From Escherichia phage UB, in sequence record MH383160: DNA of 64,000 bases, one strand, 5' to 3'. The stretch's first letter is position 1; the number at the start of each line of letters is the position of its first letter. Shown here in pieces: positions 17,106 through 55,909 of the stretch. The translations under genes and the position numbers were made by a program. A model generated the notes under the pieces. The model was not told the DNA's origin. It saw only the letters and a program-made list of their open reading frames with translations, and did no database searches.

Positions 17106-17282
17106 TTAGTACGAATCAGATTCCCAGTACTCGATTGCTTCTTTCAGCAATTCTTTAGCACGTTGTTTTGCAATGCGAGCGGGTAACAGATATGTGTACA
17201 TTAACTGACGCTTCACTTCATTCAGTGAAAGCTGTTCATGGTACAGTGCATCCATCAGTCGATTACGAGTACGTAGTTTCAT
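17106..17282 (-). CDS. small hypothetical protein (58 aa, below ORF-track cutoff)
   Basis: ATG preceded by AAGGATAA; fills a 190-bp gap. Confidence 0.45.
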   Translation of the reverse strand: MKLRTRNRLMDALYHEQLSLNEVKRQLMYTYLLPARIAKQRAKELLKEAIEYWESDSY

Positions 17283-17293
17283 ATAAGTTATCC

Positions 17294-17848
17294 TTATTTC
17301 AAAGAATCATAGTAAGCAGTGTCAAAGATTGGAGTCATAATAACATAGTCAATACGGTCAATGTAAGTTGAACTCCACATTTCTGGTTTGTCATATAACT
17401 GACGCTCGCGTTCATTCATACGAGTCAGTACTTCTTCCAATTTACTACGTGAATCCATCAATGTATTACTCGAACCATAAGTGAAGTACTCAGTCCAATG
17501 ATATTCATATTCAGTACTGATAGATTGAATAGTACCATCTTTGAAATGAGCTAAGGCATAACCTTTCTCTACAAAGTTATCAGGTGGAAGAACACCATCT
17601 GGATTAGTTTTCAATGCTTGTGCTAACTTTTCTTTAATTTCAGTTAACGTGCATACTGAACGAATGTTCTTCAGGTTTGATACTTGAAAATCACTGTACT
17701 TTCCAAAGAAAAAGACACGCCAATCTTTAGGTTCATTATCAGATACGGTAGCATCAGGGTGATGGGCGAGTAAACGAAGAAGGCCAGCTTTGTGACCGTT
17801 AATGTAGATTTCATGGATGTGGTTAGCAGTTTTCTTAAAAGTAATCAT
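17294..17848 (-). CDS. hypothetical protein
   Basis: 184-aa ORF with consensus promoter upstream. Confidence 0.6.
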   Translation of the reverse strand: MITFKKTANHIHEIYINGHKAGLLRLLAHHPDATVSDNEPKDWRVFFFGKYSDFQVSNLKNIRSVCTLTEIKEKLAQALKTNPDGVLPPDNFVEKGYALAHFKDGTIQSISTEYEYHWTEYFTYGSSNTLMDSRSKLEEVLTRMNERERQLYDKPEMWSSTYIDRIDYVIMTPIFDTAYYDSLK

Positions 17849-17895
17849 GGTAGATCCTCGATTGTAGGGATGAGAAGTTCATCCCCTTGATAAGC

Positions 17896-17923
17896 ATTAT
17901 ACAGTACTGAATGTGTTTGTCAA
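17896..17923 (-). promoter_or_regulatory. sigma70-type promoter TTGACA-N16-TATAAT with CAGTACTG in spacer
   Basis: Minus strand TTGACAAACACATTCAGTACTGTATAAT. Confidence 0.6.
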
Positions 17924-17924
17924 C

Positions 17925-18320
17925 TCAAAATAAATTCATTTCATGTGCGTATTGTGGTTCAAGATAAGATAAGTTTTTGAAACTGTCTTTCAATTCTGCA
18001 TCATCTACGTACACAGTACCAGGTACATTCCCCATAGTGAAGCCAACCCAAACAGTCATGTTTCCAGTTCCTAAGCGGGGCATTGATAGCGTCCCGTCAG
18101 GTGAAACATCAAACGCTACACTAAAGTCATCCGTTACAACTTCCGAACCATTTTCCAGAATAATACAACCACGTTCTTTAAGCTTCTGAATGTGGATAGC
18201 AGCCTCTACAGCACGTTTAAAGTTATAATAAGACTCTTTATCCTCGAACATTGATTGTTTAACCAGACGCTTGTTTAGCTCGGTTACTTTGTGCATTTGA
18301 CGCATTACTTCAACTCCCAC
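17925..18320 (-). CDS. hypothetical protein
   Basis: 131-aa ORF. Confidence 0.55.
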   Translation of the reverse strand: MGVEVMRQMHKVTELNKRLVKQSMFEDKESYYNFKRAVEAAIHIQKLKERGCIILENGSEVVTDDFSVAFDVSPDGTLSMPRLGTGNMTVWVGFTMGNVPGTVYVDDAELKDSFKNLSYLEPQYAHEMNLF

Positions 18321-18559
18321 AGTTGTAGAATTTCATAAGAGCCTGGTGGTGCTGGATTGATAATCTCAGGGTATTCAGTACTGTTAGGATTACCACCAGC
18401 ATTGAACTCAGCAAGTAATAATTCGAGTTCATTCCTATCATGAACAACAAACACGCAATATCCAGTTCCTTCTTCAAGAACTGTAGTTGATCCCGCACAA
18501 TCCCATACGGTATCAATACATAATAATTCTTTAGTGTTTTTATTACGCAACGCAAACAT
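18305..18559 (-). CDS. hypothetical protein
   Basis: 84-aa ORF; preferred over overlapping 18310..18723. Confidence 0.45.
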   Translation of the reverse strand: MFALRNKNTKELLCIDTVWDCAGSTTVLEEGTGYCVFVVHDRNELELLLAEFNAGGNPNSTEYPEIINPAPPGSYEILQLWELK

Positions 18560-18568
18560 ATATGTCTC

Positions 18569-18937
18569 CTATCGATTCGGCATATTCTTTCGTAGTCGCA
18601 AGAGAAATTCAACCACTGACCATGTTGTAATGAAGGCAATATAAGTTGCAAGGAATCCAGTAAGAATGAATGCAACCAGCGTACTACCATTTGGGGAATC
18701 AGTTTTAATGCCGATGACACCATCGGCTACAGTGAAACATGTAGCCATTAATGTGTAACCTACGTACAACACAAAGAAAAACTCATTCTCCATTGAAGGA
18801 TAGAAACGGTTAAACACTTTATAAAATTTAAAGTACAGTAGGATTATACCAACAAAGGCATAGAATGTAAACAGTGTTGTTATAATATATGAGATTAGGT
18901 TCAAATTATACATATCAACGCTCCGGTAGATTATCAC
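18569..18937 (-). CDS. small membrane protein (FK.YK.LF.R.YP family)
   Basis: Hydrophobic; motif YFKFYKVFNRFYP shared with two neighbours. Confidence 0.6.
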   Translation of the reverse strand: MIIYRSVDMYNLNLISYIITTLFTFYAFVGIILLYFKFYKVFNRFYPSMENEFFFVLYVGYTLMATCFTVADGVIGIKTDSPNGSTLVAFILTGFLATYIAFITTWSVVEFLLRLRKNMPNR

Positions 18938-19262
18938 GTAATGTTTTAATTCGATGATACATTTTCATACCAATATTACCAAAGATACCATATCCAAGTA
19001 CTAAAATGTATGCAATAAGCATAGTAATAATTACTATAGTGCCAAAACTATAATGTACACTACTGATACCCATTGTAGTTTCAACGATTATTTGAGAAAC
19101 TGAAAGAATCAAAAGTACAACTACAATTGGATGATTTGGGTACATTCGGTTGAACAACGTTTTGTACTTAAAGAAGCACAGTACTCCACCGAATAAGAAG
19201 TAAACAATGTAAATGCAAGCAACAGCATAGGCAAACATGTTAGTGTAATAAATCATTACCAA
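18915..19262 (-). CDS. small membrane protein (same family)
   Basis: FFKYKTLFNRMYP. Confidence 0.6.
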   Translation of the reverse strand: MVMIYYTNMFAYAVACIYIVYFLFGGVLCFFKYKTLFNRMYPNHPIVVVLLILSVSQIIVETTMGISSVHYSFGTIVIITMLIAYILVLGYGIFGNIGMKMYHRIKTLRDNLPER

Positions 19263-19265
19263 TCC

Positions 19266-19604
19266 TTACTTTTCAGGGATATTAGAACGCCATATATCAA
19301 TGCGATGAACTAGTCCAAAGAACAACCATACTGGAACGGCAGCTATCATAACAACAAATGAAAACCCAGTCAAGACCGATACCAGATTTAATTCATCAGT
19401 ACTATACCCACATATCAGTACTTCTAATATTCCCCACGTACATGCACAAAACATCAAGAATGAAATTGGGGCATCATAGTAGATACGTTCATATAAAGTA
19501 GTGTATCGGAAGAATGCAATAATGTAGCAAAACATATAATACACCCAAACCAAAGATACTACATAAAATGATACTTTGTTTATTAATTCAAAATATTGTT
19601 CCAT
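19266..19604 (-). CDS. small membrane protein (same family)
   Basis: FFRYTTLYERIYY. Confidence 0.6.
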   Translation of the reverse strand: MEQYFELINKVSFYVVSLVWVYYMFCYIIAFFRYTTLYERIYYDAPISFLMFCACTWGILEVLICGYSTDELNLVSVLTGFSFVVMIAAVPVWLFFGLVHRIDIWRSNIPEK

Positions 19605-19606
19605 TT

Positions 19607-19888
19607 TTACCCCAATATATATTCAGAGAGTAATGTATTAGCTTCATCTTTGTTCTTAAGGTAATACATGTAATATAGATTCGGTTCACCATCTTTAGCA
19701 CTCAAATCGAAGTACTTTAAACTATGTACTTTCATAGTAAAAACAAATAATGACTTAAAACCAATTTCACCGTACTTAATAAACAGTTCATCCAAATGAA
19801 TGTAACTTTTTGATTTGGATAATTCTTTAACGTCTGCATCAATTTCAGATAAAAGATGCTTACCTATTAAGTTTTCAAATGAACGCAT
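19607..19888 (-). CDS. hypothetical protein
   Basis: 93-aa ORF. Confidence 0.5.
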   Translation of the reverse strand: MRSFENLIGKHLLSEIDADVKELSKSKSYIHLDELFIKYGEIGFKSLFVFTMKVHSLKYFDLSAKDGEPNLYYMYYLKNKDEANTLLSEYILG

Positions 19889-19949
19889 GATTTTATCCTT
19901 TACCGCAATTTTTATGGTTTATTAAGAATACACCAGAACATCAGTTCTG

Positions 19950-20591
19950 TCAATAAAAAACTGGATCTTCTTCAGTAATTGGTATTTCTCTACGCACATC
20001 ACACGAAAGAGGATCAGTAATGAATACATTCCCATCTTTATCCATCATCACATTACTTGAATGAATGTCTGGTACAAAACGCCCGTGAAACTCTTTCATG
20101 ATGTTAGCAGCGACCGTTGCAATAGCAATCTCTTCAGAATTTCCACGCATATCATTCACTGAAGTAGCGTACTGACCAGCATGTGCATAAGAATATAAAT
20201 CTCCAATTTTAGTACTAACAAAGTCATCATAATTATTTTTTTGTTTAATTATAGGATAGTACTTGTCCATCTCATACCATCCAAAGTTTCCTTGTTCGTT
20301 TGCACTGTAAATCACTGGAAGAAACTTGGTTCCTGCGTTTTCAATGCAGTACTTTGCATAAGCACGAAAACCATCCCAGCGTGAAGTGGTTACTTTAAAT
20401 GCACGTCCAGGATAGTTTTTATGTTCAACTACTACAGAGTACATCCCCATTCCAAGCAAAGTAAGTCCAGCAGCTTTAACTTGTGGAAAGATTACGCGTT
20501 CAGCATAAGGAATATCAAACTCCATCGCACAACGAGTTTTTGATGGACGCAAAATGTCAATTAAAGTTTTGAATATTTCTTGCTTAGTCAT
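19950..20591 (-). CDS. protein kinase-like fold protein (putative)
   Basis: DIHSSN (D-x4-N catalytic-loop-like) followed by VFITDP; start moved to ATG 20591 with AGAGGA RBS because ATG 20624 lies inside the promoter -10. Confidence 0.5.
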   Translation of the reverse strand: MTKQEIFKTLIDILRPSKTRCAMEFDIPYAERVIFPQVKAAGLTLLGMGMYSVVVEHKNYPGRAFKVTTSRWDGFRAYAKYCIENAGTKFLPVIYSANEQGNFGWYEMDKYYPIIKQKNNYDDFVSTKIGDLYSYAHAGQYATSVNDMRGNSEEIAIATVAANIMKEFHGRFVPDIHSSNVMMDKDGNVFITDPLSCDVRREIPITEEDPVFY

Positions 20592-20619
20592 TACTTTATC
20601 CTCTGTAGTTAATATCAAC

Positions 20620-20649
20620 ATCATAACAAAAAAGGCTGACCGAAGTCAA
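20620..20649 (-). promoter_or_regulatory. promoter in terminator-promoter cassette (TTGACT-N18-TATGAT)
   Basis: Minus strand TTGACTTCGGTCAGCCTTTTTTGTTATGAT. Confidence 0.45.
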
Positions 20650-20652
20650 CCC
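20627..20652 (-). terminator. UUCG-loop intrinsic terminator
   Basis: GGTTGAC-UUCG-GTCAGCC + U-run. Confidence 0.7.
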
Positions 20653-20660
20653 TTTTATTA

Positions 20661-21080
20661 TCATTTACAGTTTTCTATAACTATTGCACGTTTTAGTATT
20701 TTACTTTCATAAACATACTTAAGATGACCTTCTTCACGAATACGATTGAACACATATCCTAGTTTATCTTTTAGTACTGAAGCGGTATCAATGTCAAGAT
20801 TAACTTCAACCCCTCCTGTTAATTTAACTTTATATGTAAAGCTAAAAGCATCACCAGATTCAACCAATGGGACTACTTGTTCATACGTATTCAACATAAC
20901 TCGTTCATCATTAACTAAATTATATATTACTATATCACAAGTTTTTACCCCAATTTCCTCTAATGTAGGAGCATTATCTACTATAACATCTTTTACTGTA
21001 TTTGCAACCTGTTTAGCATCTGCTGCATATACATTAAAACTAAAAAGTACTAAAATAATACTTAAAAAAATCTTTTTCAT
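20661..21080 (-). CDS. secreted protein (signal peptide)
   Basis: MKKIFLSIILVLFSFNVYA. Confidence 0.6.
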   Translation of the reverse strand: MKKIFLSIILVLFSFNVYAADAKQVANTVKDVIVDNAPTLEEIGVKTCDIVIYNLVNDERVMLNTYEQVVPLVESGDAFSFTYKVKLTGGVEVNLDIDTASVLKDKLGYVFNRIREEGHLKYVYESKILKRAIVIENCK

Positions 21081-21089
21081 TATATATCC

Positions 21090-21413
21090 TTATTTTATTT
21101 TACATGTCATATCGGGTTGTGCTTGTTTATTATTTTTAAACGGATTAGGTTTTTTATCTTTCTTTTTATCTTTTAAAGGTTTTTTGTCTTCTTTTTTATC
21201 TTTATCTTTGTCTTTTTTATTTTTATCAGGTTCAGAGGGAGTATTACATTGTGCTGGGGGTTGATTAGTTGGAGTACAGCTATTGTCTGATGGGAGTATT
21301 ACTTCTTTACAATTGTAAAATAGTAAACTTTTATTTGTGGTTAAATTATGAAAACGATAGTTACGTTCATTATTATAATAAATTGTTTTAGTACTTTCAA
21401 TGTCATTGCACAT
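21090..21413 (-). CDS. hypothetical protein with Lys/Asp-rich low-complexity tail
   Basis: KKDKDKDKKEDKKPLKDKKKDKK. Confidence 0.45.
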   Translation of the reverse strand: MCNDIESTKTIYYNNERNYRFHNLTTNKSLLFYNCKEVILPSDNSCTPTNQPPAQCNTPSEPDKNKKDKDKDKKEDKKPLKDKKKDKKPNPFKNNKQAQPDMTCKIK

Positions 21414-21423
21414 TGCTACTGAA

Positions 21424-21675
21424 TCACCGGAACTCTTTTTCTATTCCCATTACATCAGTCTTACGCTCAGATAGTATACCTGAAGTATATGAATCTTTGT
21501 TGTCAAACGCATTAAATCCAATAGTTCTGTCGGTGTCGTGTATTATTCCTTTTGTATATGAGGTAGTATAGAACTCCCCATTTCTGAAATCCTGCCTTGC
21601 TACGGAGCAATGATAATCTGCACCATAAGCAGTACTGGAAAATAATACAATTCCAAATATAATATATTTTTTCAT
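21424..21675 (-). CDS. secreted small protein (signal peptide)
   Basis: Start at internal ATG giving MKKYIIFGIVLFSSTAYG with AGAGGG RBS. Confidence 0.55.
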   Translation of the reverse strand: MKKYIIFGIVLFSSTAYGADYHCSVARQDFRNGEFYTTSYTKGIIHDTDRTIGFNAFDNKDSYTSGILSERKTDVMGIEKEFR

Positions 21676-21704
21676 TGTAATCCCTCTTCTTAATTCCTCT
21701 TTTG

Positions 21705-21733
21705 TATTTACAAAAAAAGGCTGACCGAAGTCA
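21705..21733 (-). promoter_or_regulatory. promoter in terminator-promoter cassette
   Basis: TTGACT in hairpin arm, 17 nt, TAAATA. Confidence 0.4.
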
Positions 21734-21736
21734 ACC
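21712..21736 (-). terminator. UUCG-loop intrinsic terminator
   Basis: GGTTGAC-UUCG-GTCAGCC + U7. Confidence 0.7.
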
Positions 21737-21746
21737 TTTTGTTTTA

Positions 21747-23294
21747 TCATTTACCGTATTTGCTCATGATGTCCTTTTCCCAAGGAGTTACATTTCCATT
21801 TTCGTAATCACGGAAAGAGTCATCAAGTGTAGTCAATGCATAATCATATGCCTCACCGGATTCAACATCAATATCAACAGCACCATTCACTACATCAGTC
21901 CACGCTTTTTGTAGTTTACGAGCGTTGTTACCAACTTTATCTTTAATCCAACTAAGATTTCGGTTTATACTCTTCTTATCAGCACCAGCTTTTTCACCAA
22001 CATCTGCAACCCATTGCATTAATTTCTGTAGTTCGTTATGGGATTTTTCAGTCATTTGGCGGTCTTGTGACAGTTCAGCTTCCATGTCATCAATTTCTTC
22101 GTCTGAATGAACATCTTTCTGTTCAACTGCACCTTCTTCATCTGCACGCTTTAGATAACCATCTGGTGTTACCTTCTCACCATGTTCAGCTTCATACTTT
22201 TTCATAGTGTTGAATGCAGCATCCATAGCTGTTACGAAGCGGCTTTTCTCACCTTGTACATAAGATTTAAGTACGCTGTTAACAGCGTCAGATACGAGCT
22301 TAACCTTATCGTCTTTACCTTCTAAACGGTTTTCAAGTTTAGCTAGTACATTCTTGACTTGCTGTGCATTAGCACGGTCTGCTTTACCAATACTATCAAA
22401 AGTTTTAAGAATACTTTCCAGATTAACATCATCGTGTGAGTGTTCATCAAACTCAATATCATTATTTTCGTCTTCATCCTTGAGCGTTAATCCCATTGAT
22501 GTGAGGTCATCAGCAGCACTTGACATTGACATACGAACTGCACGAGAATCATTTACATCATCTACATTTTCAATTGCCATATCAATAATGTACAGTGCTT
22601 TCTCTAAGTCTGTATATTGTTTAGCTTGATTGATAATATCGTTCACAAACTTAGCACCTAAGTAATCATTTACTTCACGGAATTCGTCTTCAGACATTCT
22701 TCCACTAGGTTTGCTTGGTTGTTGATCGGTCTTTTGTGGTAAGGATTTCTGTTTACCTTCAAGTGCACGCATGATAGTACTGAATACTTCAGTAGGTTCA
22801 GTACTGGTATTTCCACTCATTGCATCAAGTACAGCTTGTGCTTTGACTTTTAATTCTTCTTTAGGTACAGATTGCAATTCTTTCACAATACCTTGGATAA
22901 GTTGTGGTTTATTAGCAAAAATCTTACCTAACTTATCAGACAGTTCTTTGACAGGGTTAACCGCCTTTGGTGCTTCTTGTTTTGGTTCTTCTTTCGCAGG
23001 AGCAGACTTTTCTTTTTCTTCACGTTCCATATCAGCTAGGCGTTGTTTTTGTGTAGCATTAAGAAGTCCCAATGAATTAACATAACGTAGCTTTTCTAGC
23101 TCAGTCATATTGGAAGTATCAGTGCCTTGTGTTGCTACTGTGTTTGCTTTACCAGCTTCACCAGTCCCCATGTTTCTAGAACCTTTAGAACCTTGACCTG
23201 CCATATGTGAATTAGGTCTGCGATTTTTTTCTGACCACTTCTCGCTGTGTCCAGAAATGGTAGCACCATTTTTTGATTTGAAATTATCTGGCAT
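21747..23294 (-). CDS. large acidic hypothetical protein (N-terminal domain paralogous to 24185..24568)
   Basis: 515 aa, Glu/Lys/Asp-rich; YVNSLGLLNATQKQ...KELQSVPKEELK shared with neighbour. Confidence 0.65.
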   Translation of the reverse strand: MPDNFKSKNGATISGHSEKWSEKNRRPNSHMAGQGSKGSRNMGTGEAGKANTVATQGTDTSNMTELEKLRYVNSLGLLNATQKQRLADMEREEKEKSAPAKEEPKQEAPKAVNPVKELSDKLGKIFANKPQLIQGIVKELQSVPKEELKVKAQAVLDAMSGNTSTEPTEVFSTIMRALEGKQKSLPQKTDQQPSKPSGRMSEDEFREVNDYLGAKFVNDIINQAKQYTDLEKALYIIDMAIENVDDVNDSRAVRMSMSSAADDLTSMGLTLKDEDENNDIEFDEHSHDDVNLESILKTFDSIGKADRANAQQVKNVLAKLENRLEGKDDKVKLVSDAVNSVLKSYVQGEKSRFVTAMDAAFNTMKKYEAEHGEKVTPDGYLKRADEEGAVEQKDVHSDEEIDDMEAELSQDRQMTEKSHNELQKLMQWVADVGEKAGADKKSINRNLSWIKDKVGNNARKLQKAWTDVVNGAVDIDVESGEAYDYALTTLDDSFRDYENGNVTPWEKDIMSKYGK

Positions 23295-23333
23295 ATCTAT
23301 TTCTCCATAAAATAATAATACCTATGATTTTAT

Positions 23334-24107
23334 TTATATATTACCATAGATATCCATCCTAGTCAATCTATATTTGTCATTATCAATGATAGTTAATAAT
23401 CTATCTATATCTTTTACGTCTATTGTTTCTGTATAACCACATTTAAACACTGATTTGTTCAAAAACTTACATTTTATTTCTTTTTTAATTATTTTTTCTA
23501 ATTCATTAATTAAATTTCCGTCATTGGAAAAATAACAAATATAAGGAACTGATCGATATTTGTTGGCATTATATTTTCTAAATCTATTTTTACAATTTCC
23601 TGTAATGCCAAATTTATATGATACTAAATTACCAATAGTATCATAAATTTCATTTATATATAAAAATCCAGGTTTGTTGATATCATAACCAGTCTTACTA
23701 CATGATGGACAATTTGTATTAGTATTAATAAAATGATTATAAGAACATTTCCAAGAAGGATGATCAATTATATCACAGTTCAATTCAAGAATAGTGTTTA
23801 TAGAGCCATTAAAAATATATTCTTTACAAGTATATTTTTTCTCTTTACATTTTTGTATAACTCTATCACGGGCAGTTTGTTCTTTGAGAATGTTTCTCCC
23901 ATTACATTCAGGACACCCAGTTCCTTTGTAAATAAACTTTTTAAAAGAACAATTCCATCGTTCGTGTTCTGGATTGGGGCATTTTAAAATTAGTCTTGTG
24001 TTCGTGTTTATATAAACAAATTCTTCACATTTGTAGTTTTTGTCATTGCATATTTTATATACTTTTTCTTCAGCTTCTTTTTGTGTCAATTTAATACCAC
24101 TAGCCAT
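23334..24107 (-). CDS. T5orf172/MUG113-type (GIY-YIG-like) domain protein with Cys-rich zinc-ribbon-like repeats
   Basis: GFLYINEIYD..YKFGITGN..RFRKY core; N-terminal CPNPEH..C, GCPECNG. Confidence 0.6.
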   Translation of the reverse strand: MASGIKLTQKEAEEKVYKICNDKNYKCEEFVYINTNTRLILKCPNPEHERWNCSFKKFIYKGTGCPECNGRNILKEQTARDRVIQKCKEKKYTCKEYIFNGSINTILELNCDIIDHPSWKCSYNHFINTNTNCPSCSKTGYDINKPGFLYINEIYDTIGNLVSYKFGITGNCKNRFRKYNANKYRSVPYICYFSNDGNLINELEKIIKKEIKCKFLNKSVFKCGYTETIDVKDIDRLLTIIDNDKYRLTRMDIYGNI

Positions 24108-24147
24108 GAAATATCATCCTTGAATCTTTGTTATTTCATATATTTAC

Positions 24148-24175
24148 TATATAAAAAAAGGTTGACCTTAGTCAA
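24148..24175 (-). promoter_or_regulatory. promoter in terminator-promoter cassette
   Basis: TTGACT in hairpin arm, ~17 nt, TATATA. Confidence 0.4.
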
Positions 24176-24178
24176 CCC
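24153..24178 (-). terminator. intrinsic terminator hairpin (loop variant), bidirectional
   Basis: GGTTGAC-CTTA-GTCAACC flanked by A7 and T5. Confidence 0.65.
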
Positions 24179-24184
24179 TTTTTA

Positions 24185-24568
24185 TTACTTCTTGAACTTA
24201 TGTTTTTCACTTTCGATTGCATTCACGATTTCATCATGAATTTTACGAAGATTGTGAGTTTTCTTTAGAGATTCATGTAATGCACGGAATGCAGAGTGTA
24301 CAGTTGCTTTAAAGTGCTCTTTAGGAGTTACTTTAAGTTTCTCGATAATATCACGTACATAAATTGGGTGATCTTCAAACACACGATTTAGCTCATGGCC
24401 TAGTGATTCTAGACTGAATGCTTTTTCACGTGAAGGGCGATCATGTGCAAGACTTTGGTCCGGTTTTAGAAGACCTAGTGAATCTAGATACTTGTGCTTA
24501 TGTGCATTGTCTAGACCAGAAATATCAACATCATGTGATGGATCTTTCTTATTCCATTTATCAACCAT
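24185..24568 (-). CDS. hypothetical protein (paralog of N-terminus of 21747..23294)
   Basis: YLDSLGLLKPDQ and KLKVTPKEHFK motifs. Confidence 0.6.
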   Translation of the reverse strand: MVDKWNKKDPSHDVDISGLDNAHKHKYLDSLGLLKPDQSLAHDRPSREKAFSLESLGHELNRVFEDHPIYVRDIIEKLKVTPKEHFKATVHSAFRALHESLKKTHNLRKIHDEIVNAIESEKHKFKK

Positions 24569-24683
24569 TTTTATAACTCCTATAAGAGATAAATTTTACT
24601 ATAATATTTATAGTTCCGTTGTCATTTATATCGAATGACATAAAACATTATATCATAATAAGAATGGTTGTCCCAAAGTTAAA

Positions 24684-25157
24684 TTAGTACTGATCAAGTT
24701 CAGATGTAAAAATGAATGCATCCATGTCTTCCAACGTAAGTTTTAAGTCTGGTACATACTTAAGAATAACGCACTCTGGCTTCTTAATAGCAGCTTGATA
24801 AGCAGCAATGGCAAGGGATTCCAACTGCTGTGCTGTATAATTTTTACGTTCTGCATTAAAAACTTTGTTTTTGATATCACCACCTGGGAGTTTTTCAAAC
24901 TCACGCATAACTGCAGTAAGAACATCGTCAGCAGTGTTACTATATACCCATTGGGGTAATTGCATTACATTATAAATCACACCACTATCATCCATCAAAG
25001 AGATCCATTTGTACCCATCACTAGCACTGAACAAACGCCCTTTTAGTACTGTGTTATTAGTTAAATTTACAAATGCAAAAATATCTTGTTCGTTAAGTTC
25101 AATACTATTAACATTTACCCAACTCATTACGATTCCCCATTCATAAATCACGAACAA
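24684..25157 (-). CDS. hypothetical protein
   Basis: 157-aa ORF. Confidence 0.55.
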   Translation of the reverse strand: MFVIYEWGIVMSWVNVNSIELNEQDIFAFVNLTNNTVLKGRLFSASDGYKWISLMDDSGVIYNVMQLPQWVYSNTADDVLTAVMREFEKLPGGDIKNKVFNAERKNYTAQQLESLAIAAYQAAIKKPECVILKYVPDLKLTLEDMDAFIFTSELDQY

Positions 25158-25737
25158 TATTCATTAAACACAATTTAGGTTTTATAGCATTCAACACCCA
25201 TATGCATTCTTTGTAAGTAGCTATTATATCATCTAAATGCTCAGTTACAATGCTTTCTTGAAAATATTCTTCATCATTGAGCTTTGCTAATTTAGTAACA
25301 TCACACGTAGGCACTATAGGTCTGGATTGTACACCCATTCCATTATTGATATTAGTGAAATGTACAAAATGGTACTTCACAACACCTTTATCTAGATTTA
25401 TTATACATGACAAATTTTCCAACTCAGTTAGTTTTTTATTACAAGTAACATTAATGAAACCAGCATTATAGGCTCTATAATCATCTACTGATATCTCAAA
25501 ATCATTACGTTCAAATATAAGTGAAATGAGTTGGTCCAGTGGTTTGACATTCATATATTTTAATGAATTTACGTATGATACTTCAATCTTAGATGAAATT
25601 ATCTTTTTACTAAGTGCCGTTAAATCTTTGTTAGATTTAACTGTTAAAACAATAGGTTTAAACCTAGAACTTTTGTTCTTTTTTGATACTTTAAAACGAC
25701 CTTTACGATTCATAATTTCCTCAATTAACAATTTCAC
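25141..25737 (-). CDS. hypothetical protein
   Basis: 198-aa ORF. Confidence 0.55.
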   Translation of the reverse strand: MKLLIEEIMNRKGRFKVSKKNKSSRFKPIVLTVKSNKDLTALSKKIISSKIEVSYVNSLKYMNVKPLDQLISLIFERNDFEISVDDYRAYNAGFINVTCNKKLTELENLSCIINLDKGVVKYHFVHFTNINNGMGVQSRPIVPTCDVTKLAKLNDEEYFQESIVTEHLDDIIATYKECIWVLNAIKPKLCLMNIVRDL

Positions 25738-25942: not shown

Positions 25943-25994
25943 TACTATACCTTATAAACAAAAAGGAATTCATTTAAGAATTCCTATTTTACAA

Positions 25995-26288: not shown

Positions 26289-26300
26289 TTTTAATTTACC

Positions 26301-26567: not shown

Positions 26568-26581
26568 ATGTTATCCTCTAT

Positions 26582-31467: not shown

Positions 31468-31618
31468 ATTAGTCCTTAGAATAATTTATTAATAATAATA
31501 GCACCCAACGCAAGAACTGCAATAATTACAGATACCCACATTACTGCATTCACTGTACCAGTAAGTTCTTTATCAAACTCCCTGCACTTCTTGCGGTAAT
31601 CTTCCCACTCTTTGTTAT

Positions 31619-31834
31619 TCACACTGCCACTCCTAATAGGTCGGTAGCTTTCTTGAGTACTACGTCAATGGTTTCCAGTACTGCACCTTTGTGTTCAATT
31701 GATACAATATTATTATAAGTATCAAGGTCCAAGTACTCCATATATTCAGTTTTGAATACACGAACATCAGTACTAGTGATTTTAATATCACAACCTTTAT
31801 CCCAAATAACCTGCATCATTTCATTGGTAGTCAT
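31619..31834 (-). CDS. hypothetical protein
   Basis: 71-aa ORF. Confidence 0.5.
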   Translation of the reverse strand: MTTNEMMQVIWDKGCDIKITSTDVRVFKTEYMEYLDLDTYNNIVSIEHKGAVLETIDVVLKKATDLLGVAV

Positions 31835-46609: not shown

Positions 46610-46626
46610 TGCATTCACCTATATAA

Positions 46627-47319: not shown

Positions 47320-47328
47320 ATGAATCTC

Positions 47329-47694
47329 CTAATTGTGGGTTTTAACCAAACGTGCGACAGCTAGTATAGCATTAACCTCATCCAATGTCAACCCACCAAT
47401 GTCATTAATCATTGAGTACTGAAATAGTGATTCTTCAGTGTAATTGTAATCATGAGAAGCAATAAAGATTGCTGGTTTAGATGCATCCAAAATTATCTTT
47501 GTCATTGTAGTATATATATCAAATTGATACAATAGATTTTCACCTGTATATGCTACGTAGATATTATTTGAATAGGATGGATGTACCATTGTAAAACCAT
47601 CATAACATAATATTTTTATGTTCGGATCGTCAAAATTGCCTGTATAAAGGTTATTACAAACATCTTGCATTATACGTACTATTAGACTAGTCAT
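47329..47694 (-). CDS. paralog-family protein (FQYSMINDIGGLTLDEVNAIL motif)
   Basis: Shared C-terminal motif. Confidence 0.6.
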   Translation of the reverse strand: MTSLIVRIMQDVCNNLYTGNFDDPNIKILCYDGFTMVHPSYSNNIYVAYTGENLLYQFDIYTTMTKIILDASKPAIFIASHDYNYTEESLFQYSMINDIGGLTLDEVNAILAVARLVKTHN

Positions 47695-48112
47695 TTAAAG
47701 GATTTAGAACCTCTTCTGGAATCAACTTTTGAACTTTAAGTATAGCTTTAATGTCCTCAAATGTTAATCCTAATGTGTCGTTAAGGAGGCAGTACTGGAA
47801 GAATTTTTCTTCAGTATCAATATCGTTAACATTCAATTCAATTGATTCATCATCATAATCATAATCTTCATTATCACATTCATAACTTCTGAATATAACT
47901 TTTTCAAAATACACATCAAATGAATAAAAATGATTATTGAATTCATAACCAAGAAAAATATTAAAACATTTACTCAAATCTGTGGTTTGATTCAAATCTG
48001 GATCATAGCAAAATACTCTAACTTCACCAATATCTTCTAATTGTACATCATGCAGTGACCATGCGTTGTTTTTTAATACATAGTTCACCATTTTAACAAT
48101 GTTGTATGTCAT
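47687..48112 (-). CDS. paralog-family protein (FFQYCLLNDTLGLTFEDIKAIL motif)
   Basis: Shared C-terminal motif. Confidence 0.6.
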   Translation of the reverse strand: MTYNIVKMVNYVLKNNAWSLHDVQLEDIGEVRVFCYDPDLNQTTDLSKCFNIFLGYEFNNHFYSFDVYFEKVIFRSYECDNEDYDYDDESIELNVNDIDTEEKFFQYCLLNDTLGLTFEDIKAILKVQKLIPEEVLNPLND

Positions 48113-48118
48113 AGTGTA

Positions 48119-48208
<90 letters not shown>

Positions 48209-48229
48209 AGAAGTAAGATAACCAACAAG

Positions 48230-48393
<164 letters not shown>

Positions 48394-48436
48394 ATTGACC
48401 TCTTTAGATTAAAACCCCCAGTTTTCTTCTTGAACC

Positions 48437-48534
<98 letters not shown>

Positions 48535-48553
48535 GCATACTCGAAGTACCTCT

Positions 48554-48668
<115 letters not shown>

Positions 48669-48703
48669 ATAAGCTACTGAATCGGGAATCACAACCTCCC
48701 CTC

Positions 48704-48955
<252 letters not shown>

Positions 48956-48967
48956 TTATAATACCTG

Positions 48968-49643
<676 letters not shown>

Positions 49644-49656
49644 TATATCATGTGAA

Positions 49657-49903
<247 letters not shown>

Positions 49904-49904
49904 A

Positions 49905-50421
<517 letters not shown>

Positions 50422-50439
50422 ATACCCAACTTTAATTAA

Positions 50440-50765
50440 AAAAATGGATGGTGACGCTTTTAAACGCCGCTGTTAATTCAGCTTTATAACCATCCGTTTT
50501 AACTTGCCTTTCGGCTACCTTGACGTGGGGCGTACAGGCTGCTAAAAGCAACTTCTGTAAACATATTTCCACGCCTTACCCTTTTAAATAAAAGTCCATC
50601 CGGTTTTCCAGTTTGGTGAAGGACTGTCACCTCTAGTTTCAACCTGCTAGTCAAGTAATAATTGCCTATCGTCCAATTATCAAACCCGTCTAGGTTAACA
50701 TTCACCACTTCCTAGAGTACCAGAGATCTTGTTCTGGATAGCATCGACGTAACTTACACCATATA
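50440..50765 (-). ncRNA. candidate structured non-coding RNA (unclassified)
   Basis: G+C-enriched ~330-bp block with many short inverted repeats; only ORF has an alternative start, no RBS and atypical codons; promoter directly upstream. Confidence 0.3.
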
Positions 50766-50774
50766 CGTCTGATT

Positions 50775-50803
50775 GTGGAATTCATTATATCAGTACTGAA
50801 CTA
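50775..50803 (-). promoter_or_regulatory. extended -10 promoter (TTCAGTACTGATATAAT)
   Basis: TGATATAAT with conserved palindrome in spacer; weak -35. Confidence 0.45.
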
Positions 50804-50992
50804 TTCATCAGTGCTCAAATAAATTGTATCAGTTTTACATTTATACTGAATACGATGATCAATAAACGTACCTTGTTTATAAAGATCTGCATTTTTTACA
50901 TCAGTAATGATTTCAACACCAACATATTGTTTAAAAAGAACTTCTGCTTCTGGATATTGTTTAAGAATTTTAATCAAATCTTTAGCTTTCAT
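50801..50992 (-). CDS. small protein, MKAKDLIK-family
   Basis: N-terminus MKAKDLIKILKQYPEA. Confidence 0.55.
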   Translation of the reverse strand: MKAKDLIKILKQYPEAEVLFKQYVGVEIITDVKNADLYKQGTFIDHRIQYKCKTDTIYLSTDE

Positions 50993-51022
50993 TTAATCCC
51001 ACTCGTTTATGTGTTAAGATAC

Positions 51023-51055
<33 letters not shown>

Positions 51056-51063
51056 CTTTTTTT

Positions 51064-51225
<162 letters not shown>

Positions 51226-51229
<4 letters not shown>

Positions 51230-51390
51230 GTTCGTACCATTATTTCAATAAAGAACCACGGATACGCTTCATGGTTTATAAGTTTATCGTATTCTGCTGG
51301 GTCTGACATGATTTCCCAATGATACTTTCTCCAGTTACCGAAACCTGCATATCTAAAATTAATGTCATTCATCCATTCTTCATGCGTCAT
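51226..51390 (-). CDS. small MTHEEW-family protein (54 aa)
   Basis: N-terminus MTHEEWMNDI. Confidence 0.5.
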
Positions 51391-51441
51391 GGTTTTAACC
51401 TTTAATTAAAATTATCATAGGCATAAATTTAATTACTATCA

Positions 51442-51984
<543 letters not shown>

Positions 51985-51998
51985 AATATTATATTTTA

Positions 51999-52070
51999 TA
52001 AAGGGCCGGAGAATCGAACTCCGATTGGATTCTTAGAAGGAATCTGTTTTATCCATTAAACTAGCCCCTC
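51999..52070 (-). tRNA. tRNA-Arg (anticodon UCU)
   Basis: Acceptor GAGGGGC/GCCCUUU with G-U pairs, D-arm GUUUAAUGGAUAAAAC, anticodon stem GAUUC/GAAUC loop CUUCUAA, T-arm CGGAGUUCGAUUCUCCG. Confidence 0.7.
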
Positions 52071-52113
52071 AGTACTAATAATTATATCACATCTTTATGT
52101 GATGTCCAATTAT

Positions 52114-52386
52114 TTATGATTCGGTTTCGGGATTAAATTTTATAAATTCATCTTTATATTCATCTTCAATCGCAATATCTTCTACTTCTTCAGGCCAAAT
52201 CGTAGTGTCTCCTTGATAAAAGCGATAATTATCAAATACTGCACTACGCGTTCTTCCCTGTTCCCAGCCAATCGTACAGTCATGATATACATCCCCACTA
52301 CTTGTACGAATACTAATGGTGTCTTGAGTTTCATAAAGAACTTCAATGCGTGTGTTACGATTTACGTTGAATTTTTCAAAATGCAT
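52114..52386 (-). CDS. hypothetical protein
   Basis: 90-aa ORF. Confidence 0.55.
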   Translation of the reverse strand: MHFEKFNVNRNTRIEVLYETQDTISIRTSSGDVYHDCTIGWEQGRTRSAVFDNYRFYQGDTTIWPEEVEDIAIEDEYKDEFIKFNPETES

Positions 52387-52439
52387 AATATTATCCTCAT
52401 CTAGAACCAGTGATAATCATTATATAATGAATTAATGAT

Positions 52440-52658
52440 TTATGCAAGTGTTTTAGATACACCGACACCAATAATTCCAGTGATATCGATATGGATATTG
52501 GCAAGTTGATTACTATCATATGGGTTTGTTTCTGTAATAACCAATGTTGTATCATTGACTAAAACCACAGTACCTTTTACACGATAACCATGTAGTAGTA
52601 CTTGAACCTCATCTTCAGGTTTTAATGATTGAATAACTTCAAATAAAGTTGTTTCCAT
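52440..52658 (-). CDS. hypothetical protein
   Basis: 72-aa ORF. Confidence 0.5.
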   Translation of the reverse strand: METTLFEVIQSLKPEDEVQVLLHGYRVKGTVVLVNDTTLVITETNPYDSNQLANIHIDITGIIGVGVSKTLA

Positions 52659-52673
52659 TTTTGTATTCCTTGT

Positions 52674-52856
52674 TTAGTTTTGATTATTTGACTTTCTAAA
52701 TGCCAGTTCGCATATAAACCAGGGTTTTCTGGTATCCAAAACATATGACCTGAAAAGATTTTCATCTCTTAATATATCATAATGTACCTGACGAATGCCA
52801 TTCCCAAAGCAGTCATGTTCTTTATGCTGTTTGGACATCCATTCTTCGTGTGTCAT
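52674..52856 (-). CDS. small MTHEEW-family protein
   Basis: Start set to ATG 52856 (MTHEEWMSKQ); listed 52874 start is TTG. Confidence 0.5.
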   Translation of the reverse strand: MTHEEWMSKQHKEHDCFGNGIRQVHYDILRDENLFRSYVLDTRKPWFICELAFRKSNNQN

Positions 52857-52857
52857 T

Positions 52858-53073
52858 TTATGTATCCAGTACAATTAAGTGCTGCATCTCTTCTTTTGTA
52901 AAGAAAGCACTGTCATGAACAATAGAACCAGTCTTATCAACTACATAGTACAGGTTTCCATATTGTTGAACATCAATTCCGTCAATTTCAATTCGTGGAA
53001 AATTTTGGACAATACAGTCTGCACCGAAAACCTCACCAAAAAAGTTTCCTGCTGGATTGATAATGACTTTCAT
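52858..53073 (-). CDS. hypothetical protein
   Basis: 71-aa ORF. Confidence 0.5.
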   Translation of the reverse strand: MKVIINPAGNFFGEVFGADCIVQNFPRIEIDGIDVQQYGNLYYVVDKTGSIVHDSAFFTKEEMQHLIVLDT

Positions 53074-53091
53074 ATTAAATCACCTTTATTG

Positions 53092-53193
<102 letters not shown>

Positions 53194-53198
53194 TCTTA

Positions 53199-53375
53199 CT
53201 ATTTTTTGTCTCTAATAGCAAGCTCGTAGATGAACCAGTGGTTGGAATCTTCGTCCAAAACCAATGATTCGAACGTTTTTTTATCGTTCAAAACATCATA
53301 ATGGCCTTGGCGTATACCAAATCCAAAATGATCATGTTTATATTTTAGTGACTCTATCCATTCTTCATGTGTCAT
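53199..53375 (-). CDS. small MTHEEW-family protein
   Basis: Start set to ATG 53375 (MTHEEWIESL); listed start is TTG. Confidence 0.5.
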   Translation of the reverse strand: MTHEEWIESLKYKHDHFGFGIRQGHYDVLNDKKTFESLVLDEDSNHWFIYELAIRDKK

Positions 53376-53453
53376 TTTATGTATCCAGTTCAATTAAGTG
53401 TTTCATTTATTCTTCTGTAAAGAAAGCATTGCAATGGACAATGGAAAAGGTTA

Positions 53454-53633
53454 TTATATTTTTTTGTCTCTAACCGCAAGCTCATAGATGAACCAACGAT
53501 TTCCATTCTCATCTAGTACATATGATTCGAACTTATATTTGTCTCGTAAAATATCGAAATGACCATCAATAAATCCATTTCCAAACTGGTCATAACGTTT
53601 TTTCATCATTGCCATCCATTCTTCATGTGTCAT
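53454..53633 (-). CDS. small MTHEEW-family protein (59 aa)
   Basis: MTHEEWMAMMKKRYDQFGNGF...; ATGA overlap with upstream stop. Confidence 0.5.
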   Translation of the reverse strand: MTHEEWMAMMKKRYDQFGNGFIDGHFDILRDKYKFESYVLDENGNRWFIYELAVRDKKI

Positions 53634-53815
53634 CTCTTAATATCCATAACGGCTATACTAAAATATGTACCAAAATCATCACAATTGATAATGTTGTTAT
53701 AGTACTCAATTGGGTTACGCAATGATATATACAATTCAAGCTTAAAATAGTATATATCTGCTGCATTTATATTATAGTGTAGATTAAACCACTCATCAAA
53801 TGTCTTAGGCTGCAT
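53630..53815 (-). CDS. hypothetical small protein
   Basis: 61-aa ORF. Confidence 0.45.
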   Translation of the reverse strand: MQPKTFDEWFNLHYNINAADIYYFKLELYISLRNPIEYYNNIINCDDFGTYFSIAVMDIKR

Positions 53816-54209
53816 TATATTTATCTTTATAAAAATCCATGATTTTAGTCAACAGTACTGCAATCGTATAATCTAAATCAGGATAAAGTAAATTGTACTG
53901 AAATTCTTCCTCAACACTATAGTTAGTGGTACAGTACTGGTAATCTTTATAACCTATTGAAAAATAATTCGGATACAATGTACAACGAAAGCGATAAGCT
54001 TCATCTGTCATATAATCATTGTATTCAACACAGAAGTATAGTGATTTTGAATTTAATTCGATAAGCTCAACGAATCCATCAGGTAATGAATGGTTATAAA
54101 TTACTGAATCTTCATTAAACCATTCATAGTATTTTTCCAAAAAATCACTAATGGATACATCCAGACTTTGTATAGGTGGAGTTATGATAATTTGAACTTC
54201 TTTATTCAT
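53805..54209 (-). CDS. hypothetical protein (C-terminal EFQYNLLYPDLDYT family-like)
   Basis: 134-aa ORF. Confidence 0.55.
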   Translation of the reverse strand: MNKEVQIIITPPIQSLDVSISDFLEKYYEWFNEDSVIYNHSLPDGFVELIELNSKSLYFCVEYNDYMTDEAYRFRCTLYPNYFSIGYKDYQYCTTNYSVEEEFQYNLLYPDLDYTIAVLLTKIMDFYKDKYNAA

Positions 54210-54709
54210 TTCGACCCCTTACTATATTTCACGTATGGGCTATCATACAGATCATAACTTTTTTGTGCACGTTCTTTTCGGCGTTCATACATGATTCTAT
54301 CATACTCTTTAGCTTTCTGATTTGCTTCATTATACAATTTTAAAATTAGCAAAAATGCATCAAGATCGGGATAGTTTACTGGATTGATAGTACTCAGCAT
54401 AAATCGTTCTTCTTCAGTTCTAGCTAAGTCAAATTCATACTTAATAGTTTTATACCCACTCCATTTATATATATGCGTTACTTTATTAGTAAGTACATTA
54501 TATTCAACGAAGTCAGTACTACCATCAAGTACACGAGTAATCTTAATAGATGTACCAATGACAATCTGCACAGAACTCATTTCTGAAGTTTTAAAGTAAT
54601 AAATGTTATTACGGCGAAGATTAACTTCTCGATCTCCAATGCGAACATGCTTAATAACTTCCATTAATGGTTCTGGGACACCACGAATCGGCATGTTAGT
54701 ATTCCTCAA
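54206..54709 (-). CDS. hypothetical protein
   Basis: 167-aa ORF. Confidence 0.6.
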   Translation of the reverse strand: MRNTNMPIRGVPEPLMEVIKHVRIGDREVNLRRNNIYYFKTSEMSSVQIVIGTSIKITRVLDGSTDFVEYNVLTNKVTHIYKWSGYKTIKYEFDLARTEEERFMLSTINPVNYPDLDAFLLILKLYNEANQKAKEYDRIMYERRKERAQKSYDLYDSPYVKYSKGSK

Positions 54710-55265
54710 TAACGGTTAGGAATCTATCCCAACCAGTATAAGTGAAATGATCAAAGTATTGTTTTTCGCCACCTACCATATATACTTCAATTAAACCGTG
54801 GTCGAAATAATTTTTTGGTTTTTTAACTTCAGTTACGATTGCTTTATGTCTGAAACCATTATAATCAGTATATGTTACAATATCGTGAATTTTGATATTA
54901 TCAGGTGTATAAGTGTTGGCGTTATTATTGAGAACATGAAGATGATGGTCTACGATTTCTTTACTGGAAATTACTCCAAATATGTTACCAGAAAATACTT
55001 TATTACCATTACAGGTCAATGCCCAGCCATCACCAACTTCAATAGATTCAAATACATAATGTGTGCAAATTTTAGATACATCTGACGTATCCCAGTAATC
55101 ACCATCAAGATTGGTGAATTTATAAACAGTTTTGAGTTTTTCGCCATCAAATGAAAGCAATGATACTCCGATAACAACCGTTCCGTCTTTAAGAATAATA
55201 TTAAATTTATTATTTGTATTAAAGTATGCTTCTGACTCATATGTGTTGAATTTAATAAAGTTCAT
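54696..55265 (-). CDS. hypothetical protein
   Basis: 189-aa ORF. Confidence 0.6.
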   Translation of the reverse strand: MNFIKFNTYESEAYFNTNNKFNIILKDGTVVIGVSLLSFDGEKLKTVYKFTNLDGDYWDTSDVSKICTHYVFESIEVGDGWALTCNGNKVFSGNIFGVISSKEIVDHHLHVLNNNANTYTPDNIKIHDIVTYTDYNGFRHKAIVTEVKKPKNYFDHGLIEVYMVGGEKQYFDHFTYTGWDRFLTVIEEY

Positions 55266-55312
55266 ATGTTCTCCTTAGTAAGTCATAGTATTATATCAGA
55301 GTTTCATTGCAC

Positions 55313-55705
55313 TTACCAGCATGTTTTCATAACTTCTGTGATGTAAATCATTTTATCTTTTAGTGTGTAAGGGATGCAAATTTCACCTGGGCTTAACGTT
55401 GTGTTCTTTTGAAACTCATCTTCTTCGGAATCAGCCAGGTAAAATGGGTGTGTCACAAAGGTATCATCAACTGGACGATTATGTGGTTTCATTAATGCAT
55501 CATGATTGACAAAATAATAAGCATCAATATCAGGACGGAAATACAAACAATCAACCTTAATGCACGGGTGTAACCATAAGGACAAAGAATATGTTATTTG
55601 GTTACCAATTTGTCTTGGGCCTGATGCAATTGCATTGATGTTATTTTTATCTTGTACCATTTCATAAATGAAATCTATCATTTCGTGTAGTTCTGATTCA
55701 GTCAT
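55313..55705 (-). CDS. hypothetical protein
   Basis: 130-aa ORF. Confidence 0.6.
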   Translation of the reverse strand: MTESELHEMIDFIYEMVQDKNNINAIASGPRQIGNQITYSLSLWLHPCIKVDCLYFRPDIDAYYFVNHDALMKPHNRPVDDTFVTHPFYLADSEEDEFQKNTTLSPGEICIPYTLKDKMIYITEVMKTCW

Positions 55706-55716
55706 TTTATTTCCTT

Positions 55717-55743
55717 AAAAAAATACCCAGTACTTGACTGGGT
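55717..55743 (-). terminator. intrinsic terminator (ACCCAGU-ACUUG-ACUGGGU + U7)
   Basis: Hairpin carrying the CAGTACTTGACTG motif, followed by U-run on minus strand. Confidence 0.6.
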
Positions 55744-55759
55744 ATTTACAAAGTAACGT

Positions 55760-55909
55760 TTAATCAGATTTCTTTTCGTAATCTGTAAAAACAGTCAGGA
55801 TTGTTGCACATAGTGAATCAACTACTGATGCACGTGTGTTATCAAGGTCTTTAGCTAGTGCTTGAATCTCTTGAAGTTTTACTACTAAGTCGATTTTTTG
55901 ATTACTCAT
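55760..55909 (-). CDS. small hypothetical protein (49 aa)
   Basis: ATG with AGGAGAAG RBS; terminator immediately downstream. Confidence 0.45.
   Translation of the reverse strand: MSNQKIDLVVKLQEIQALAKDLDNTRASVVDSLCATILTVFTDYEKKSD

Follow-up and report, generated by a model that had tools for sequence, protein, structure and literature searches.

Short reading frames of the window

The 64,000-nucleotide (nt) stretch of Escherichia phage UB considered here (sequence record MH383160; hereafter the window) carries, in the gaps between its longer genes, a series of open reading frames (ORFs) of fewer than 60 amino acids (aa), which are the subject of this analysis. DNA searches place the window in an Asteriusvirus jumbo coliphage of the PBECO4/121Q/JP4 type, the genus being the placement given in the 121Q record. 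Positions 15000-35000 are 98.3% identical to JP4, while positions 44000-56000 are 97.3% identical to JP4 over 95% of the query, 98.7% identical to slurp01 and 98.5% identical to PBECO4. Nearly all long ORFs are on the minus strand from ~8200 onward, and six minus-strand transfer RNA (tRNA) genes between 48129 and 53171 form a tRNA island. An earlier note, made from the letters of the window, had listed six short ORFs at definite positions and three at approximate ones as genes that fall below a 60-aa cutoff. The six (A-F) are found exactly where they had been placed, all on the minus strand. The other three (G, H, and I) exist as well, with coordinates that had to be corrected to 31476-31622, 59611-59754, and 59939-60082, and a further ORF (J) lies between H and I. 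The ORFs, with their counterparts in relatives and their PHROG families, are as follows:

17106..17282, minus strand: ORF A, 58 aa, basic, isoelectric point 9.4; 121Q gp213; phrog_38182
48280..48393, minus strand: ORF B, 37 aa, basic; 121Q gp139; phrog_38501
51065..51229, minus strand: ORF C, 54 aa, MTHEEWM family, phrog_10970; 121Q gp127
51226..51390, minus strand: ORF D, 54 aa, MTHEEWM family, phrog_10970; 121Q gp125
53454..53633, minus strand: ORF E, 59 aa, MTHEEWM family, phrog_10970; JP4_CDS0100
55760..55909, minus strand: ORF F, 49 aa, acidic; 121Q gp109; phrog_22175
31476..31622, minus strand: ORF G, 48 aa, GTG start; 121Q gp179; phrog_38271
59611..59754, minus strand: ORF H, 47 aa; 121Q gp99 and phi92 gp213; phrog_2381
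59939..60082, minus strand: ORF I, 47 aa; 121Q gp97; phrog_26722
59754..59924, minus strand: ORF J, 56 aa, between H and I; 121Q gp98; phrog_6110

In a survey of all gaps of at least 60 nt between long genes, the list of the earlier note covers almost every gap that is filled by a same-strand ORF. The small ORFs are already known as annotated hypothetical proteins of relatives, and none of them is new. Their tblastn coordinates coincide with annotated coding sequences in 121Q, JP4, UE-S1, vB_Ec-M-J, A4, and Turkey5. The 121Q orthologues gp97, gp98, gp99, gp109, gp118, gp125, gp127, gp139, gp179, and gp213 (gp118 being the counterpart of a paralogue described below) have the same map positions and lengths at 57-100% aa identity, and equivalents without substantive difference are also present in JP4, PBECO4, UE-S1, vB_Ec-M-J, A4, and Turkey5. 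All candidates match PHROG families over their full length (E-values of 1e-9 to 1e-42), and these families are all of unknown function.

The records of some relatives miss or mis-call individual ORFs. In the UE-S1 record J starts at an upstream GTG, and in the JP4 record opposite-strand ORFs are called at the locus of B. The latter comprise three ORFs (CDS0114-0116) at positions 13653-14183 of the fetched JP4 locus, equivalent to ~48200-48740 of the window, where other relatives annotate B. The frame of B is intact in JP4 (fetched-locus positions 13996-14106), and CDS0114-0116 are probably a mis-annotation. For J itself, the ORF track of the window gives 65 aa from a GTG at 59951, relatives annotate 56 aa from an ATG at 59924, and the Shine-Dalgarno (SD) sequence at this ATG pairs with -7.0 kcal/mol. 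Of the two, the ATG is the true start of J.

Coding selection and expression signals

The comparison set consists of the homologous 48-50 kb of JP4, 121Q, UE-S1, vB_Ec-M-J, A4, Turkey5, and RaK2, the last of which belongs to Alcyoneusvirus and the other six to Asteriusvirus. Frames were located by local tblastn and then compared codon by codon. In four to six Asteriusvirus genomes every candidate has an unbroken frame of equal or almost equal length, the sole length changes being one or two codons in Turkey5 or A4, and the ORFs stay open in relatives down to 64-85% nucleotide identity. Counterparts of F, H, and I that are 35-50% identical occur at syntenic places in RaK2. The ratio of non-synonymous to synonymous substitution rates (dN/dS) is 0.02-0.33 in comparisons with divergent relatives, and most differences fall at third codon positions; the counts at positions 1/2/3 are 6/3/18 for A versus Turkey5, 4/3/17 for G versus A4, and 8/4/20 for I versus Turkey5. 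Each ORF on its own has more synonymous changes than the neutral share predicts (binomial P of 6e-3 to 2e-7, with one divergent relative per ORF). Judged by these substitution patterns, the small ORFs are real protein-coding genes under purifying selection. Conservation in relatives, which the earlier note had proposed as a check, thus bears the ORFs out in four to six genomes each.

These data already contradict the view that the ORFs are chance open frames in spacers or decaying remnants of longer genes, to which we give next to no weight. It is true that an ORF of 37-54 aa is not rare in an AT-rich gap of 450-540 nt: in simulations, a gene-strand ORF of this kind appears in a random gap of the same size with a probability of 0.12 for one 54-aa ORF in the gap that holds C and D, and of 0.52 for the 37-aa ORF B. 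Because of these values, the mere presence of an ORF is insufficient for B, C, and D, whose case rests on the comparative evidence. For the gap-filling ORFs A, E, F, G, H, and I the same simulated probability is 0.0005-0.046. Chance frames or remnants would also have to keep their length and frame over the divergence seen here, with an excess of synonymous changes, and further phage genera contain homologues of H, J, A, F, and I.

Signals for translation are present at most of the starts. For A, B, F, G, H, I, and J, the duplex between the SD and anti-SD sequences has an energy between -5.4 and -8.7 kcal/mol, against reference medians of -5.45 kcal/mol for minus-strand genes of at least 100 aa and -0.9 kcal/mol for all ATGs; for C, D, and E it is -2.8 to -3.4 kcal/mol (C, -2.8; D, -3.4). 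The starts of C and E lie inside the upstream stop (ATGA), that of G in a GTGA overlap and that of H in a TAATG overlap, and such a stop/start overlap is the usual arrangement for translational coupling. Initiation can be accounted for either by a strong SD sequence (A, B, F, G, H, I, and J) or by an ATGA overlap (C and E), and D has a weak SD sequence only. The good ribosome-binding sites that had been claimed for these ORFs are found in the first seven, where the SD sequence is within range of the long-gene median or stronger, and are lacking in C, D, and E. With conservation, selection, and translation signals combined, the core of the earlier proposal, that real small genes lie below the 60-aa cutoff, is well backed.

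Between 8201 and 64000 the minus strand contains 31 sigma-70-type promoters that agree with the consensus at 11 or all 12 of its positions, and the plus strand contains one, the expectation from first-order Markov simulations being 2.0 +/- 1.6; 11 of the 31 are perfect (TTGACA-N16-18-TATAAT). So many sigma-70 promoters on the coding strand make a good case that the host RNA polymerase reads the block, so that the genes of the small ORFs are probably early and transcribed from host-type promoters. A promoter directly upstream is found only for B and I, and a hairpin with a run of T residues follows F:

48437..48465, minus strand: sigma-70-type promoter, TTGACA-17-TATTAT, upstream of ORF B
60143..60171, minus strand: sigma-70-type promoter, TTGACA-17-TATGAT, second hexamer preceded by TG, upstream of the I-J-H group
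55717..55745, minus strand: intrinsic-terminator-like hairpin ATACCCAGT-CAAGT-ACTGGGTAT with T-run, directly after ORF F, read from the sequence

The automated terminator scan of the window did not list the hairpin at 55745-55717, and UE-S1 has an annotated terminator at the homologous place. The earlier description of these ORFs as having their own promoters or terminators therefore applies to B and I (promoter) and to F (hairpin and T-run), and not to the rest, which lie within operons. A perfect palindrome, ATTCAGTACTGAAT, has 13 matches with at most two mismatches, where 0.73 are expected. Its perfect copies are at 48586-48599 and 48707-48720, both in the gap upstream of B, and the 11 looser ones (for example 17899-17912, 51030-51043, and 47411-47424) in some cases overlap the spacer or the -10 region of sigma-70-like promoters. 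The palindrome could be an operator, or else belong to an extended promoter consensus.

ORF A is the second gene of an operon under a consensus promoter at 17923-17896 and has the SD sequence AAGGA (-6.0 kcal/mol). It is intact in six relatives with a dN/dS of 0.09-0.15, 18.5 of its 27 changes relative to Turkey5 are synonymous (P=1e-6), and tblastn finds it in 41 phage records, among them those of Salmonella phage Munch and Erwinia phage Hallingskeid. A kinase-like look of the 123-aa neighbour of A (16730-17101) was dropped as it has no Pfam support. ORF F (SD sequence AGGAG, -7.3 kcal/mol) has a dN/dS of 0.13-0.24 relative to UE-S1 and Turkey5 and occurs in 36 phage records by tblastn; its homologue in RaK2 is the N-terminal part of an 81-aa protein, at 36% identity. 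ORF G (SD sequence AGGAG, -6.9 kcal/mol) keeps its GTG start in four relatives, with a dN/dS of 0.06-0.13. A C-terminal transmembrane helix is predicted at residues ~26-44 (best Kyte-Doolittle 19-mer, 2.84), by which G is a putative small tail-anchored membrane protein.

ORF B, with the SD sequence AAAGAGG (-6.5 kcal/mol), sits between its own promoter and tRNA-Thr (48129-48202), and this order is kept in all relatives with annotated tRNA genes. Its differences at codon positions 1/2/3 are 0/0/6 relative to UE-S1, 2/0/6 relative to 121Q, and 3/1/7 relative to A4. All six differences from UE-S1 are synonymous, and those from A4 comprise eight synonymous and three non-synonymous changes (P=3e-4). 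In the main alternative to coding, for which the position of B between a promoter and a tRNA gene, in what may be a chance frame, is one argument, some ORFs, chiefly B and those of the tRNA island, would be untranslated and conserved through a function as tRNA precursor, processing signal, or small RNA; the weak SD sequences of C, D, and E agree with this, as does the presence nearby of non-coding stretches (48400-48560 and 50596-50782) that are highly conserved without a reading frame. We consider such an RNA-level explanation highly improbable, as the substitutions are frame-specific, with a third-position excess in B and a dN/dS of 0.14-0.33 in the MTHEEWM genes. The MTHEEWM paralogues, moreover, retain length and motif at 26-62% aa identity, which constraint on an RNA would not yield, and no Rfam match lies inside these ORFs.

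Several points weigh against taking all of these ORFs as functional protein-coding genes. The 37-aa frame of B may arise randomly, its case rests on ~6-8 synonymous changes per comparison, and it adjoins strongly conserved non-coding DNA. The SD sequences of C, D, and E are weak. The P values obtained for the individual relatives are not independent, since the relatives share ancestry. For all candidates, scans against Pfam and NCBIfam yielded only noise below threshold, and fold searches (PDB, BFVD, and Foldseek) gave neither a significant match nor a functional lead. A literature search found no RNA-seq, Ribo-seq, transcriptome, or whole-cell proteome study covering these genes in this phage group. 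With these points taken into account, we put the probability that the ORFs are ordinary functional small protein-coding genes in an early-type minus-strand block of Asteriusvirus at roughly 0.85.

The I-J-H group and the tRNA island

The promoter at 60171-60143 is followed first by ORF I, which has the strong SD sequence AAGGAG (-8.7 kcal/mol). Its dN/dS relative to A4 and Turkey5 is 0.02-0.07, its RaK2 homologue is 35% identical, and tblastn finds it in 36 records. The core of J, SIKASTNGTTYDRYDxKYGLH, is 80-85% identical in ORFs of ~40 aa that T5-like Epseptimavirus phages carry within their tRNA clusters; gene 106 of the T5-like Salmonella phage bux, for example, encodes 40 aa inside a tRNA cluster and shares the core with J in the form SIKASTNGTTYDRYDxKFGLH.

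The most widespread of the small ORFs is H, with 233 phage records across several genera by tblastn, including phi92 (gp213), Phapecoctavirus, Klebsiella phages, and Salmonella phage Munch; a search for its homologues returned 3 clusters with a single sequence and 16 with an alignment as query. The highly confident AlphaFold2 (AF2) model of H (predicted local distance difference test score, pLDDT, 94.3) is a four-stranded meander with strands at residues 2-5, 11-15, 18-22, and 30-32, followed by a short C-terminal helix. Residues 22-29 (SNDNGSTW), between strands 3 and 4 of the model, match exactly the Asp-box consensus S-x-D-x-G-x-T-W (Quistgaard and Thirup, 2009; PMC2716378). The top fold matches of H are Asp-box propellers (sialidases, GH74, Ycf48, and sortilin), all with Foldseek E-values above 1, and its match to the Pfam family BNR is below threshold (E=0.04, 14.3 bits versus a cut-off of 27 bits). 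In RaK2-type homologues the motif is degenerate. The motif and the turn between strands 3 and 4 are what H, as predicted, has in common with the Asp-box (BNR) propeller blades of sialidases, GH74, and Vps10/sortilin, but where those propellers have several blades, the 47-aa chain of H would make a single blade plus the short helix. In its predicted structure H resembles a single Asp-box blade, and membership in that family is not claimed.

ORFs C, D, and E are members of a single family, named here after its start M-T-H-E-E-W-M, and match phrog_10970 with E-values of 1e-26 to 1e-30. With an iterated profile, five copies are clearly recognised in the window (E<1e-26), namely C, D, E, and the first two of the following ORFs:

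52674..52856, minus strand: MTHEEWM paralogue, 60 aa from ATG (66 aa from TTG in the ORF track), profile E=4e-28
53199..53375, minus strand: MTHEEWM paralogue, 58 aa from ATG; 121Q gp118; dN/dS 0.17-0.24
53630..53815, minus strand: distant MTHEEWM candidate, 61 aa; 121Q gp114

The ORF at 52674-52856 is missing from the earlier list because it exceeds 60 aa. That at 53630-53815 is 46% identical to P0037 and P0014, both of which have an MT(K/S)xEW N-terminus. The core profile reaches P0037 with E=6e-4 and 53630-53815 itself with only E=0.04, and the latter is a probable distant member linked to the family through intermediates. Its stop is overlapped by the start of E, and the stop of D by the start of C. 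Within the dN/dS range given above for the family, D spans 0.14-0.32. The relatives carry four to eight copies each, all in the tRNA island, and RaK2 carries none. The window has the gp125 and gp127 types without the gp126 type, JP4 has the gp126 and gp127 types, and since paralogue content differs in this way among close relatives, single copies would be dispensable. The family is narrow, with 21 clusters in 5.8 billion sequences and ~27 genuine 50% clusters in an exhaustive search of 1.84 billion representatives; those clusters that can be placed all come from Asteriusvirus-like contigs. Among the 30 matches of the exhaustive search, the long proteins P0025, P0031, and P0032 were rejected on inspection as low-complexity or unrelated repeat proteins. 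An AlphaFold model (25 sequences; AF2 for E) has four short helices at moderate confidence (pLDDT 77.5), and a fold search with it against PDB and BFVD found nothing beyond a family member.

Short genes that lie between tRNA genes and on the tRNA strand, as in the window, are also known as trna.2-.4 of T4 and as small ORFs of T5-like phages. Unlike these, J of the window lies ~6 kb upstream of the tRNA island, and the MTHEEWM family has, in the searches above, no member outside Asteriusvirus-like contigs. The island is plastic, as judged by its tRNA content and endonuclease insertions, which vary among close relatives. An HNH homing endonuclease gene (51442-51966, minus strand) lies between tRNA-Arg and the D/C pair, and in 121Q tRNA-Ser and tRNA-Leu are directly upstream of gp125. 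Two further minus-strand genes of the island, 50801-50992 (63 aa) and 48740-48955 (71 aa), have a common 19-aa N-terminal module (MKAKDLIKILKQYPEAEVL versus MKAKELIKVLQNNPEADIL; 63% identical, pairwise E=2e-7).

Also within the island, a minus-strand stretch of ~185 nt at 50596-50782 is more conserved than the surrounding genes. Identity is 97-99.5% in Asteriusvirus, 94-95% in Klebsiella Alcyoneusvirus (RaK2-like), 91% in T4-like Bragavirus (Proteus PM2, Morganella vB_Mm5, and Shigella SdyM006), and 85% in T5-like Novosibvirus phages (Proteus phage 1). In the phages outside Asteriusvirus it is unannotated and fills the space between two tRNA genes, in the same orientation as these. An alignment of five sequences contains three compensatory changes in three hairpins. 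The stretch has no Rfam match even at E-values up to 10 and no tRNA or transfer-messenger RNA match, and its identity with rnaC or rnaD of T4 was rejected at the sequence level, blastn finding no similarity. By its conservation and covariation it is a candidate for a conserved structured RNA, and the 69-aa GTG ORF that overlaps it (50499-50708) is probably spurious. As a by-product of the analysis, this RNA candidate is of more interest than the small ORFs.

Other elements outside the long genes came to light in the same comparison. The non-coding stretches 48400-48560 and 35234-35883 are conserved in all frames on both strands, with stops in their apparent ORFs, which suggests regulatory or RNA elements; UE-S1 has a repeat_region at the counterpart of the latter, downstream of the phage sigma-factor gene. 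Conservation of the 90-nt spacer (49739-49828) that separates tRNA-Asn from tRNA-Met extends as far as RaK2, where an apparent ORF of 25 aa is 72% identical, and no tRNA is predicted in it. At 33506-33589 on the minus strand lies a transmembrane-like ORF of 27 aa, MTLEIVFGIVSLVVCVGWFGYLMVFGD, with the SD sequence TAAGGAT (-5.9 kcal/mol). It is intact in JP4, vB_Ec-M-J, UE-S1, and A4, frameshifted in 121Q, unannotated in the feature tables of JP4, UE-S1, vB_Ec-M-J, and A4, and outside the list of the earlier note; Turkey5 also has an ORF containing GWFGYLM. In the plus-strand gene block, a 380-nt gap (4172-4551, plus strand) holds small ORFs at 4222-4392 (56 aa) and 4413-4541 (42 aa), which lie outside the range of the earlier note and of the fetched comparison loci.

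Possible roles of the small proteins

As ordinary genes of the block, the small ORFs would be transcribed by the host sigma-70 RNA polymerase from the consensus promoters, mostly in short operons, and translated either from an SD sequence of their own, as in A, B, F, G, H, I, and J, or, as in C, E, G, and H, by coupling to the gene upstream. The products appear too small for enzymes and would most likely function through binding to partners. A and B would be small basic soluble proteins, F a small acidic one, G a tail-anchored peptide of the inner membrane, and H a free-standing Asp-box beta-meander, whereas C, D, and E, with two or three paralogues, would represent a four-helix family that has been amplified and turned over within the tRNA island. 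We infer an accessory role from the variable copy number among close relatives and the patchy distribution: the proteins would be dispensable and would tune the interaction between host and phage, rather than serve core replication or virion functions.

A more specific role had been suggested by the earlier note, which pointed to small early proteins as a source of host-inhibitory functions. Many small early proteins of T4 and T7 do inhibit host functions, and the ORFs considered here lie in a block rich in sigma-70 promoters, encode small products of which some are charged and one is membrane-anchored, and look dispensable as individual copies, with family content differing among close relatives. 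That they are host-shutoff or host-inhibitory proteins, toxic to Escherichia coli when expressed alone, nevertheless seems unlikely. None of them resembles a characterised host-takeover protein, whether by match to a characterised family in Pfam, NCBIfam, or the PHROGs or by a structural lead from the fold searches, and small early phage genes assayed in other systems have mostly proved non-toxic.

Three unrelated families are tied to phage tRNA genes, namely the MTHEEWM proteins, B upstream of tRNA-Thr, and the J-type peptides, and for this reason one may ask whether these proteins work with the phage tRNAs, perhaps together with the ~185-nt RNA, instead of being mere cargo of a recombination-prone region. 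We hold this to be rather improbable; if it were so, one effect could be to shield or exploit tRNA pools in the face of tRNA-directed defences of the host.

The reading of the small ORFs as ordinary accessory genes leaves current understanding unchanged. For annotation, it means that in 64 kb of a jumbo phage at least a dozen real genes are lost when ORFs below 60 aa are discarded; these genes should be called in the way they were in 121Q. The set of ORFs is also a ready list for toxicity and anti-defence screens, in which H, the MTHEEWM family, and the core motif of J would be the most useful entries.

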